Positions 20,001 to 23,000 of a stretch of DNA of 64,000 nucleotides are shown here, piece after piece. Position numbers and translations under genes: made by a program. Position 1 is the first letter of the stretch. The number at the start of each line of letters is the position of its first letter. Under the pieces are notes generated by a model. The model searched no databases and was not told where the DNA came from. It saw only the letters and a program-made list of their open reading frames with translations. Source of the DNA: a virus; IMG/VR virus record IMGVR_UViG_3300044591_001745, positions 21,201 through 85,200 of that record. One strand, 5' to 3'.

Positions 20001-23000
20001 ATCTGGATTTTCGTTCATATGCAACTGTTTGCCAATATCCCACGTTGCCCAACTTTCGCTTTGACCAGCGATACTAGGAGCTTGTCCAATTCCTGACATA
20101 GCAGTAGAGAACATATCTCTCATTTGAGAAACTAAGGCATCGACTTTGGTATTGTCTTGTTTTGTTAACTCTTCTGCATATTTTTGACCGGAAGGGCTGA
20201 TTGCGGTATCTGTTTGTCCGCTAACATCGCTATAATTCATGCGTTTGCGATAATATTCAGTATCTCTTACTGGTAAAGGCGGCAATGGAGGTGGAGTGAT
20301 AGTAGGAGGAGATACTGATATTGGCTGTGGAGAAGTACCAACAGCAGCTTTCATAGCGTCTGATGCTGATACTGGATTTCCTGCATTTCTGTTGGCTAGT
20401 CTTGCCTGTCTAGCAGTTAATGTGTCCTCTTGCATTCTTTGGAGATCTTGTGAAGAATATCCTTCTGATTTAGCTATAGATTGTTCTTGAGTAGCTACTC
20501 TGGATCTATTAATTTTATCTAATTCTACCACTACTCCTGTAGACATCTGTCTAAAAGCTTCTACTATATCTGGACCCAAAGAATCAGTTTGTTTTCTAAT
20601 GCTTGACATAGACCTTTTGACAGTGCTCATAGCGGCATTCCATGATGATGTGTCTAATAGGACACTAGCATCAGATAATGAACCGATAGTAACACCAAAA
20701 GCATCTTTTAATTCTTGCGGAAATGACGATATGATACTGTCTATTCTATTTTGTATTTGTGCTAATTCTTTAGCATTAATTGCAACAGTTTCTACTCTTT
20801 GTAATTCTCCACCATCAGCAAACTTTTGTATTCCTATAGCCCCGCCCTTATTGAAGCCCAATGCTTCAGTGGCTTTTTTCCTAATAACAAAACTTCCTAC
20901 TGGCAATCCTACTGGACCAAAAGAATCAGTATTTCCACTACCAGGAACTATACCAACGTCTCCACCACCAGCATATCTACCCATGCCATTTTTATCGGCA
21001 TGATTCATACGACGCAACCTACCGTATCCTATTTTCTTAGCTAGTTTTGGACCAATTACAGCTTCTCCGGGAGTCAACAAAGCTGGAACACTACCTCCTT
21101 CGGCAAATCCTCCGGTTTGTAGTCCTTGAGCTTGACGTTGAAAGAATTGCATGGCCATTGTTCTAGAGTCTTGTTTCTGGTTTGCTCTAGTAACAGATTT
21201 GGGATCATTAATTAAAGAGGGACTCTTAGTATATCCGCTTTGTAGTACCCATGCTAAGTCTGTTGGGGGTGGCCAAGTTTCTCTTCTACCATAAAGTTTA
21301 GGATCTATAAGCGCGTTATTTTTTGTCCAATCTTCAGGTTCTAATGGGACTTTTTTAACGTCTGATCTATTTTTGAAATAATATTCCCATACTTTTTTTG
21401 CATCTCCACTAACCATAGCCCTATCTGATGTAAGCATAGCTCCTTGTTCTGTTGCTGCTTCCATAACAGCATCATATAATTTAGGACCACCGCCTCCAGT
21501 AGCTTTAGACAATCCAACAGTATACAGATTGTTTTTGGCTTTTTTAGCCATAACAAATCCCGACACTGTATCATTTTTAACATATCCAGCATTTATTGTA
21601 GATCCATCAGATGTTAGAGATATGCGTGGATATTGTTTTTCTTCTTTACGAGCTGGCTGCTGATTATTTCCATCTCCTAATATTTCTATATTAGATGGCT
21701 TTAATGGTGATTGTCCAACATACTTTAAAACTAAACCGTATGGTTTTTGGAATAGTTTACTCTCGAATTCATTAACTAATGCAGGGTCTCCGGCTGTTAA
21801 TCTCTGCATTAATTTGCCAATAAGTTCGCCCTCTCTAACATTCCCGTCGGTACCACTATAAAGCGTTCTTCTCGCACCGCCTTGAACTGTATATTGTTGC
21901 CCGTCATCTCCGGTAAGCGTTTGTGATCCTTCTTGTACTCTTATGCCAGATGACATAATTCCTTTTTCTAGGTTCTTATCAACTTTACCCAATAGGCTAA
22001 TCGGAGCATCATCTTTCATGGATAGCGTTGGCTGTATTTTATCAAAATTTTCAGTCATCCATTTAATGATTAAAGACTTTTGCAATTCATAGTCTAGATC
22101 ATAATTTTCTGGTGTAAGAGCTTCATTGAATGTTAACACCATCGGTTTCCCTGTTGTGTCCCCAGAAACAACGGTTCCAAAACCGCCGCCAGCAACTCTC
22201 ATTTTGGCTTGAGTAACTGCCCTGTCTTTTTCTGTGTAAACATAAAATCCTGCTCCTTGCCCATAGCCAGTAGCAATATTGCTTAATGCTCCTTTTTCTT
22301 TGAAGCTATTAAGGACACTATCATTAGTTCCGGTATTACTACCATGAAATAAACTAACTATTCCACCACCGGCAAATCTGGCGATATTTGGATTTTCTAA
22401 AAAATATCTTGCAAACTCATTACGTGCTCTTTCAAAAGCACTGCCATCTAATGTTCTCTTTATTTCTGTAGGCAGATCGGGATCTAACCCGAAAAATTGT
22501 GCAGCGCGTCCAAGCCCATTTGGGAAGTCGATAGCTCTATTCGATTCAAGTTGATCGATGGGTGGAAGATTAGCTCCTAAAAGTGCCAGGGCTTTTTCTA
22601 TAACTGCGCCTTCTATATTGCCCTGACCCATTAATTCATCTAATTCTGGTTTGGCTTTCGGCTCAGTATATAAGAATCCTTTCTTTCCACTCTTAGATAC
22701 GGCATTTAAATTATCTAGACTATCATCTATTAATTTTTCTGTTTGCGCTAAATTGGCTGCCTTCGCTGCTGCTATATTGGTAGATGCTCCTGAGCTTACT
22801 CCTGTAATATCTGATTCTTTGTATGGTAGTCCAAAAGTTTGCAAAGTTTTTGCGAGTAAATCGGCAGTTGCTTGTGGTCTTGCGGTCAATATACGAGTTT
22901 GTCTAATAAAATTAGGATCTTCATCTATAAGTGTTTTAAGTTTTGCTCCTAATCTAGTTAATTTAGCTTTTTTAAGAGCTTCTGCTACAGCATCCCTATT

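Follow-up and report, generated by a model that had tools for sequence, protein, structure and literature searches.

An ADP-ribosyltransferase-like domain carried as a movable cassette in giant tape measure proteins of phages

The question raised by this locus is whether the tape measure protein (TMP) of a phage tail carries an ADP-ribosyltransferase (ART) as cargo. The window, by which we mean the whole 64,000-nucleotide stretch analysed (positions 21,201 to 85,200 of the IMG/VR virus record IMGVR_UViG_3300044591_001745), belongs to an 85.2-kb IMG/VR contig of an uncultured phage with a CheckV completeness of 54 %, which originates from lake or freshwater metagenomes. No RNA data set was among the sequencing runs listed for this DNA, which has no bearing on its expression. 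The minus strand of the window contains a giant open reading frame (ORF) at 11022..26351, which is 15.3 kb long and encodes 5,109 aa according to the ORF list and the translation. Inside this ORF, a first-pass annotation made from the sequence alone had placed a His-type ART/PARP-like domain. Taking the evidence together, we consider it reasonably probable that the segment represents a divergent ART-like family which would use NAD+, and that it is a swappable cassette of the TMP which would be delivered through the tail.

The nature of the carrier could be determined from its N-terminal part. Residues 190-384 (25200..25784, minus strand) match the TMP core family PF10145 PhageMin_Tail with an E-value of 9.7e-23 and 81.5 bits against a Pfam cut-off of 33.2, and aa 48-576 are matched by three PHROG families with the annotation tail length tape measure protein (phrog_4211, phrog_28 and phrog_14917; E-values between 8e-24 and 7e-15). 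By these profile matches the 5,109-aa ORF is identified as a tape measure protein, with a TMP core that spans its first ~580 residues. The protein is very large, and its relatives reach 6,418 aa. For comparison, the 9-kb TMP genes of Gordonia phages have been termed among the largest (PMC4919401, PMC4982279).

The ART-like domain occupies aa 1332-1565 of this protein, about 235 residues (21657..22358, minus strand). The limits were drawn from relatives found by phmmer, which cover query positions ~7-238, and the free-standing relatives give the same limits. In translation the window copy reads ...ARFAGGGIVSLFHGSNTG...SFKEKG...GYGQGAGFYVYTEKDRAVTQA...KPMVLTF... and starts with V1332 (nt 22356-22358) immediately after ARFAGGGI, so that the translated FAGGG joint motif (aa 1326-1330, 22362..22376, minus strand) stands directly before the domain. 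All residues quoted in the first-pass annotation are present in the translation of 11022-26351 (minus strand), at the positions it gave. Its limits, 21680-22360, correspond to aa 1331-1558, and the family alignment extends the domain slightly past the lower of them, to ~aa 1563-1565 (nt ~21657). Its motif, searched as a regular expression, occurs once in the six frames of the 64-kb window (22206-22352, minus strand) and in none of 200 residue-shuffled six-frame translations; the 85-kb record holds a single copy of the domain.

The same DNA was recovered in lake-water run X3 from a separate study, where records 11 and 12 cover 20933-21883 and 21855-22451 and are identical to the window. As these contigs run across both ends of the domain without a mismatch, the segment is not an assembly artefact or a chimera. 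Run X2 contains, in addition, a second contig of 2,433 bases (depth 49.6). Its match to the window is limited to 21949-21969 and 22285-22312, and between these two stretches 132 different letters replace 315. Probably the middle of the domain is diverged or shorter in a related phage of that lake.

The segment is not confined to this protein. Searching aa 1326-1585 with phmmer against 1.84 billion cluster representatives (clusters at 50 % identity) resulted in 147 relatives at E ≤ 1e-3, of which 67 remained at E ≤ 1e-10 and 19 at E ≤ 1e-30. In 100 of the 147 the domain makes up the whole protein (190-320 aa), while 11 are 321-599 aa long, four are 600-1,499 aa, 18 are 1,500-6,418 aa and 14 are fragments shorter than 190 aa. 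When IMG/VR was scanned with a 12-sequence sub-alignment, 16 loci were found, five free-standing (229-272 aa) and 11 within ORFs whose length ranges from 2,574 to over 5,100 aa. Scanning one genome per prokaryote species gave nine loci (L028-L036), with a small host ORF (118-358 aa) in the eight for which an ORF was found. Eight of the nine lie on contigs of metagenome-assembled genomes (MAGs) labelled Woesearchaeota, Methanosarcinales or 'archaeon', with a GC content of 0.30-0.51, and may be viral contigs binned into MAGs; the ninth is a complete Bdellovibrionota chromosome. Neither the window domain nor P0028 had a tblastn match in 50,697 GenBank phage records, a first scan of genome contigs with the window domain as query found nothing, and a word-indexed search with the family profile (A1) returned eight proteins, all without Pfam domains or names. 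Three relatives, P0058, P0061 and P0079 (1,036, 663 and 1,295 aa), contain the domain and do not share the rest of the TMP, which points to other fusion partners. Judged by its relatives, the segment is a self-contained, conserved and autonomous domain of a phage family that has no Pfam or PHROG model, and the first-pass annotation had been right to single it out inside the TMP.

The members of this family are only 22-38 % identical to the window copy (101-row alignment). Conservation was counted position by position over 108 near-full domains. Six residues are near-invariant, namely H1336 (108/108), Q1365 (106/108), D1420 (108/108), E1422 (108/108), K1543 (106/108) and Y1544 (106/108), and the window copy retains all of them. 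At position 1370, 87 of the 108 domains have Y and 21 have F; D1418 is kept in 89 and G1546 in 101. From the N- to the C-terminus, the family motifs read [LV]-Y-H-[GA]-T-x-T-G; S-F...G; G-x-G-Q-G-x-G-F-Y-V-[WF]-T; A..HA; G-x-P-M-[IV]-V; P..[WF]-D-[LI]-D-Y-E; F-[LI]..N; then, after a variable insert, P.....F-E...F and A-[LI]-K-Y-[VT]-G..P-L.P..I-E...G.W. In the window, all on the minus strand, H1336 is encoded at 22344..22346 and is the candidate NAD-binding His of strand 1 in H-Y-type ARTs. The GQGxGFY motif, Q1365-G-A-G-F-Y1370, lies at 22242..22259, where the Y/F would be the strand-2 aromatic residue. It is followed by D1418-L-D1420-Y-E1422 at 22086..22100, a candidate for a relocated catalytic acid, by the insert (~aa 1440-1505, 21837..22034), which according to the per-column gap counts and the alignment blocks is gap-rich across the family and longer in TMP-borne copies, and by the KYxG motif of the C-terminal half, K1543-Y1544-V-G1546, at 21714..21725. 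The alignment shows a pattern of invariant residues that looks enzyme-like.

The relation to known enzymes became visible in the N-terminal half. At the permissive threshold of E ≤ 10, Pfam models matched the 101 aligned members in only a few cases: ART-PolyVal in four (best E 0.019), DUF3990 in two, PARP (PF00644) in one (E 0.055), and every other family in one member each. ART-PolyVal, DUF3990 and PARP are all among the Pfam ART families (PMC7955679). In a protein-language-model Atlas, where scores below 0.9 count as leads only, the named clusters nearest to the window domain were ART-PolyVal (0.85-0.87), and those nearest to a free-standing relative were ART-PolyVal and Arr-ms (0.88 each). 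The leads from Pfam and the Atlas agree on the ART clan, and the ART-PolyVal lead was tested by profile-profile comparison with hhalign. ART-PolyVal (PF18760) comprises Tox-ART-HYD2-like ARTs of the H-Y-D type from polyvalent proteins of phages and conjugative elements, with its prototype in the virion RNA polymerase (vRNAP) of Roseovarius Plymouth podovirus 1, hereafter RPP1 (Iyer et al. 2017, PMC5512222). As the reference we used seven ART-PolyVal domains, the RPP1 vRNAP ART and six tblastn relatives of it from GenBank phages (A2), all seven of which match PF18760 (best E 3.7e-21).

The family profile A1 aligned with this reference with a probability of 94.7 % (P 5.9e-8, score 51.1) over 75 columns, whereas the reversed reference scored 21.9 and 40 column shuffles scored at most 18.4, with a median of 11.1. 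An independent alignment of 17 N-terminal halves (A4, from IMG/VR and GTDB loci) reached 93.5 % (P 2.2e-7) against the same reference, and comparison with a 19-sequence ART-PolyVal profile gave 88.6 % (P 2.6e-6) over 49 columns. Four successive elements are in register, [YF]HG[TS], the L..F helix, the second-strand G-x-[FY], and A..[HY]A followed by P-[ML]-x-[IV]. H1336 aligns with the invariant H10 of ART-PolyVal, and G1368 and Y1370 with its G-x-[FY]. According to the alignment, the homologous part (aa 1330-1417, 22101..22364, minus strand) would contain strand 1 with H1336, a helix, the GQGxGFY strand, the A..QA helix, the PMVL strand and P..Y. As far as profiles can show it, the N-terminal half, and this half only, shares an ancestor with the ART-PolyVal / Tox-ART-HYD2 ARTs of phage polyvalent virion proteins. 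On the strand assignment drawn from the same alignment, it keeps the H and Y of the H-Y-D triad as H1336 and Y1370, the residues that hold NAD+ in H-Y-type ARTs. The earlier description of the segment as a His-type ART/PARP-like fold is hence borne out for the N-terminal half, but not for the C-terminal half with its KYxG motif, which matches no ART, and 'PARP-like' is a less apt label than ART-PolyVal or Tox-ART-HYD2-like (H-Y-D).

The second part of the question concerns the way in which the TMP carries the domain. We compared the window TMP by blastp with 22 relatives of at least 600 aa. In 14 of them the N-terminal ~500-900 aa of the TMP are shared at 42-60 % identity, and one more shares aa 138-498; the shared N-termini therefore identify these long relatives as homologous tape measure proteins. 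The start of the ART-like domain ranges from position 227 to position 4,386 across the long relatives, and the modules next to it differ. What these giant TMPs have in common is the N-terminus and several helical blocks, while the cargo modules are shuffled. Polyvalent proteins are large virion-associated proteins in which several unrelated effector domains are combined in variable ways (PMC5512222). Of these traits, variable architecture is shown here, the same cassette standing at different positions beside different neighbours.

The borders of the cassette are regular. Of the 19 long relatives listed, 14 show x-[AVNS]-x-GG-x-[VI]-x-L-[YF]-H at the entry to the domain, with GG four residues ahead of the L-[YF]H strand. 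Most long relatives have FAxGG on both sides, and in most the domain ends just before the next FAxGG...DTVPALLTPGEFV joint. The complete joint module, FAxGG..PxxLxPGEFVVNKxA..GYGxL..YAxGG, is present in at least four copies in the window TMP. The copy at aa ~1749-1860 (20772..21107, minus strand; FAEGG..PALLTPGEAV..YAGGG..FADGG) corresponds to the joint which in most long relatives follows the ART-like domain directly, and the other repeats lie at aa ~613-680, 3315-3385 and 4893-4975 (~24320-24520, ~16200-16410 and ~11430-11680, minus strand). These modules resemble aa 733-790 of lambda gpH (pairwise blastp E 0.004-0.006), and the joint is a candidate processing or assembly signal. At its C-terminal side the window TMP is an exception. 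After ...NIEILGDG there is a linker of ~12 residues and then another module (aa ~1578-1745, 21117..21620, minus strand) with no FAxGG joint before it, and the next joint comes only at aa 1749. This module has no Pfam or PDB match, and the GNAT-like label given to it in the first-pass annotation is unconfirmed. It adjoins the ART-like domain in only three of the 22 long relatives, preceding it in P0009 and P0010 and following it in P0017, and the idea of a fixed ART+GNAT unit was dropped on account of this rarity and of the changing order. The sequence comparison shows the domain as one movable cassette among several, placed between repeated FAxGG...PGEFV joints of giant TMPs.

From these elements a mechanism may be proposed. 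The domain would bind NAD+ through H1336 and Y1370, and the rebuilt half would carry out NAD+-dependent catalysis using D1420/E1422 and K1543/Y1544. The cassette would leave the tail with the TMP, ahead of the DNA, and, as infection begins, reach the envelope or the cytoplasm of the host, where it may work tethered to the TMP or after cleavage at the joints. Since the TMP exits the tail before the DNA, the cassette would act before phage gene expression.

Several results weigh against this reading, and we give them together with the alternatives on which they bear. Direct searches for an ART were consistently negative. Pfam (E ≤ 1) and PHROG searches with the halves of the TMP (for Pfam including aa 1-2500) and with aa 1320-1760 gave nothing on the ART-like domain, and at E ≤ 0.01 none of the 101 members matched any ART family in Pfam. 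The only matches of these members at this threshold, or in PHROGs at E ≤ 0.001, were to DUF1672, phrog_4700 and phrog_14664, each in a single member, and were taken as chance. Six-frame scans of the 85-kb record with PF18760, PF13151, PF12120 and PF01885 detected nothing at E ≤ 10, which also gives no ground for placing the domain in Tpt1/KptA (PF01885), and the window domain does not reach the PF18760 gathering score of 31.2 bits. In the PDB, a search with the single sequence found no match. The full profile recovered Tpt1 chains on the LYHGT motif only, at a non-significant E of 0.96-1.5; its best match, UAF30 (E 0.017), fell in the insert region and was judged to be chance. The N-terminal half alone found no ART in the PDB (best E 0.22, unrelated), and the best match of the C-terminal half was an unrelated procathepsin propeptide (E 0.36). 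Searches starting from the ART side were no more productive: the RPP1 ART domain found no match in a protein homologue search, IMG/VR scans with the RPP1 and Y3 domains returned only RPP1 itself or nothing, and an Arr-ms scan of five genomes and then of 124 genomes of the phylum of G001 gave no match. The split beta-sheet of an ART, with its NAD+-binding cleft, is moreover only putative for this domain.

If the fold is not that of an ART, the N-terminal similarity would be a shared strand-helix-strand-helix arrangement or convergence, and the domain would be some other enzyme, for instance a metal-dependent hydrolase using H1336, D1420 and E1422, possibly lytic for the cell wall. The failure of every direct HMM-to-sequence test against ART families fits this explanation, as does the fact that over half of the domain is without a detectable relative of known function, and the classical enzymatic cargo of TMPs is muralytic. 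On the other hand, the profile-profile match lies far above its controls with four successive motifs in register, and independent, unbiased searches name families of the ART clan first. The families listed in the E ≤ 10 Pfam scan include no lysozyme, peptidase or amidase, even as a weak match, and free-standing copies sit in replication modules, not in lysis modules. We consider a non-ART fold very improbable.

The C-terminal half was the most difficult part to interpret. The detectable homology is limited to ~75-85 N-terminal residues, and hhalign comparison of the C-terminal halves with ART-PolyVal gave a probability of 0.1-0.2 %. The strand-5 Asp of ART-PolyVal (GYDG, present in all seven reference members) has no conserved counterpart in the family, which also lacks a counterpart of the ART-PolyVal end motif IVFNPNQIK. 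A 'PD' after helix 3 (column 1444) was considered as the missing Asp and rejected, as D is found in only 32 of 101 members and the window copy has S. The first-pass annotation had seen no obvious catalytic Glu, and this is true of the canonical strand-5 place; D1420 and E1422, however, are invariant (108/108) elsewhere in the domain. Because the Asp of YDG is undetectable and other residues are invariant instead, the reaction is perhaps not classical protein ADP-ribosylation. The earlier caution that activity or substrate may be atypical agrees with this pattern of a missing Asp and invariant residues peculiar to the family. A more specific version, which we hold only tentatively and regard as rather doubtful, is a new branch of ARTs in which the strand-5 acid has been replaced, possibly by Lys1543-Tyr1544, and D-x-D-Y-E has been recruited for a non-canonical NAD+ reaction, whose target could be, among others, nucleic acids or a defence signal derived from NAD. 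Giant TMPs of freshwater phages would pass this enzyme through the tail as an exchangeable cassette.

The window copy itself departs from the family at two positions, 1381 (Q for the usual H) and 1563 (N for W). Position 1381 belongs to the A..HA consensus (H in 85 and Q in 6 of 108 domains), which stands where ART-PolyVal has A..[YF]A. The replacement of the 'A..YA' Tyr by TQA, which the first-pass annotation had pointed out, is thus real in this copy, but it is a local change, as the family consensus is A..HA. Both departures, at otherwise well-kept positions, could also be taken as signs of a pseudo-enzyme, that is, an ART-derived fold that has lost catalysis and serves the TMP as a binding, spacing or plug element, with a host factor or an NAD-derived ligand as possible partners. 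The third catalytic residue that defines the parent family was likewise not found. ART folds without the catalytic Glu do exist, examples being the Glu-less PARPs and TASOR. TASOR-like ART domains are mentioned in passages of PMC7955679. What makes a pseudo-enzyme improbable in our view is that the six polar or aromatic residues named above persist in 106-108 of 108 domains at 22-38 % identity, which is the pattern of an active site, and that ~100 clusters have the domain as a small protein of its own, in which there is nothing to be spaced or plugged.

Further doubts come from the genes around the free-standing copies. Three neighbourhoods were annotated, L012, L018 and L025, on IMG/VR contigs of 95, 299 and 186 kb. 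The copy in L012 is accompanied by a DnaB-like helicase, gp32, RecA, a DEAD helicase and IMPDH, that in L018 by a DEAD helicase and an amidoligase, and that in L025 by an NAD-dependent DNA ligase, RecJ, an RlaP RNA-repair nucleotidyltransferase and LAGLIDADG endonucleases. These copies sit among replication and repair genes of large phage contigs and not among virion genes; delivery would therefore be a property of the TMP fusion, not of the family. On the Bdellovibrionota chromosome (CP129486.1, L034:5110-6654) the copy is found downstream of an IS91-type transposase and of a fragment of 123 aa matching a WapI-like immunity protein (E 5.6e-10), which hints at a toxin-immunity island. Few as the neighbourhoods are, they suggest a family function independent of the virion, possibly a nucleic-acid or toxin-like role.

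Such surroundings bear on a third alternative, namely that the domain is an ART-derived NAD+/ADP-ribose hydrolase or nucleic-acid enzyme and not a protein ADP-ribosyltransferase. The NAD+ pocket with its H and Y would be kept, and D-x-D-Y-E together with K-Y would serve to consume NAD+, to destroy defence signals derived from NAD, or to modify the ends of DNA or RNA as DarT, Tpt1/KptA, RES or MbcT do. The missing canonical strand-5 acid and the new invariant polar residues are consistent with it, as are the NAD-dependent DNA ligase, RecJ and RlaP beside one copy and the DnaB-like helicase, gp32, RecA and DEAD helicase in the two other neighbourhoods. The weak PDB match fell on the NAD lobe of Tpt1, and phage ARTs include KptA-like RNA-repair enzymes (PMC9503650). 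Yet the neighbourhoods number only three, and replication regions are large in large phages; the Tpt1 match is non-significant (E~1), and PF01885 finds nothing in the record; nor does any result here separate a hydrolase from a transferase. We rate this alternative as rather unlikely. As to the tail, delivery and cleavage at the joints are proposed steps, and room in the tail tube for three folded 26-kDa copies of the domain may be a difficulty.

The remainder of the TMP and the genes around it offered little additional information. The cargo at aa ~1085-1230 (window ~22660-23100), upstream of the ART-like domain, contains LVFDFDETLV, suggestive of a HAD-type DxDxT motif, and has no Pfam match; the same is true of the other cargo modules of the window TMP. 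Among ten proteins encoded next to the TMP (1316-11003 and 26443-41723, minus strand), nine have no PHROG match and the tenth matches a PHROG of unknown function. The only Pfam family above its curated cut-off was the beta-roll LbR_Ice_bind in a 1,071-aa protein, and the same family matched a 2,488-aa neighbour below the cut-off. As far as profile searches reach, the tail module of this phage lineage is essentially unannotated, and the flanking genes are not assignable to tail functions.

Large injected virion proteins with ART domains have already been described in print, and so has a TMP-fused enzyme. In titles, abstracts and main-text passages we found no TMP-ART fusion, the supplements, including the architectures of PMC5512222 and PMC9503650, being outside the search; with the same limit, this family, its altered catalytic half and its exchangeable carriage by TMPs were not found in the literature. 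Virion-delivered ARTs are known or predicted in phage heads, as T4 Alt, MuF fusions and polyvalent proteins. To these, the present locus adds a family without a model, comprising 147 clusters at 50 % identity and apparently tied to ARTs only through its NAD-binding half, and it adds evidence that giant TMPs of 3,000-6,400 aa carry the domain as a movable cassette between conserved joints. The alignment may also serve annotation, as the family has neither a Pfam nor a PHROG model, and the ~100 stand-alone versions would lend themselves to expression and assay. An active domain would extend the known chemistry of the ART fold and show that the tail tape can serve as a modular device for effector delivery.

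Among known systems, the PARP-type (H-Y-E) ARTs, represented by PARP (PF00644) and diphtheria toxin, share with the window domain the motifs LxHG[ST] and GxG[FIV]Y. Strict assignment to this type was rejected, as it is supported by the motif only. The window domain has no significant Pfam or PDB match, the PDB searches brought up neither a PARP nor a toxin chain, and its conserved strand near the C-terminus, A-L-K-Y-V-G, lacks the Glu expected there in H-Y-E ARTs. The E-Y-[IV] of the PARP/diphtheria-toxin catalytic strand does resemble the K-Y-[VT] of the family, and an equivalence of K and E would be an assumption on our part. Lambda gpH offers a parallel to the joints. The succession FAxGG..PGEFVVNKxA..GYGxL..YAxGG resembles FATGG..HRGEFVFTKEATSRIGVGNL..YATGG of gpH, but in gpH such a module occurs once, close to the C-terminus, and there is no cargo; the window TMP has at least four with cargo in between. 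Lambda gpH is a TMP that is processed to gpH*, and we presume that the cut falls at its joint-like module. T4 Alt, which the first-pass annotation had named as precedent, is comparable in that a ready-made NAD-using enzyme enters with the genome and modifies the host before phage expression (PMC5512222, PMC9503650). It differs in belonging to the R-S-E clade (Alt/VIP2) and in being packed in the head, not fused to the tail, and no sequence relation with the window domain was seen.

The closest relatives in sequence are the ART-PolyVal domains. ARTs are the commonest protein-modifying domain of virion-borne polyvalent proteins and have H-Y-D active sites (PMC5512222). Both families have [YF]HG[TS], L..F, G-x-[FY]-x-T, A..[YH]A and P-[ML]-x-[IV] in common, both are parts of multidomain virion proteins of very large size, which are thought to accompany the DNA into the host, and both have an insert of variable length after the fourth strand, which in ART-PolyVal lies between NP[LI] and GYDG. 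One GNAT family typically neighbours ART-PolyVal (PMC5512222), and the window domain is followed by the module with the unconfirmed GNAT-like label. The window domain nevertheless fails PF18760 and measures ~235 aa against a model of 140 positions; its family lacks the Asp of GYDG and IVFNPNQIK and has its own GQG, D-x-D-Y-E and KYxG. D-x-D-Y-E has no counterpart in ART-PolyVal, and for KYxG no similarity was detected there or in PDB chains. The carrier differs too, being a TMP, and the main text of PMC5512222 never uses the phrase 'tape measure'.

For the carrier, the nearest parallel is gp96 of Thermus phage P23-45, a TMP of 5,002 aa whose N-terminus is a functional virion RNA polymerase (Chaban et al. 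2024, PMC10770324). In both cases a TMP of ~5,000 aa is fused to an enzyme, or here a predicted one, that would act in the host at the start of infection. In gp96 the enzyme is an N-terminal two-barrel RNA polymerase, whereas the window TMP has an ART-like cassette among several internal cargo modules, and passages of PMC10770324 on gp96 describe no FAxGG-bounded cassettes. Activity and structure have been shown for gp96, while the window domain is known from its sequence. P23-45 gp96 thus stands as the experimental precedent for a TMP-fused enzyme, and it supports the idea that TMP enzymes are delivered and active.

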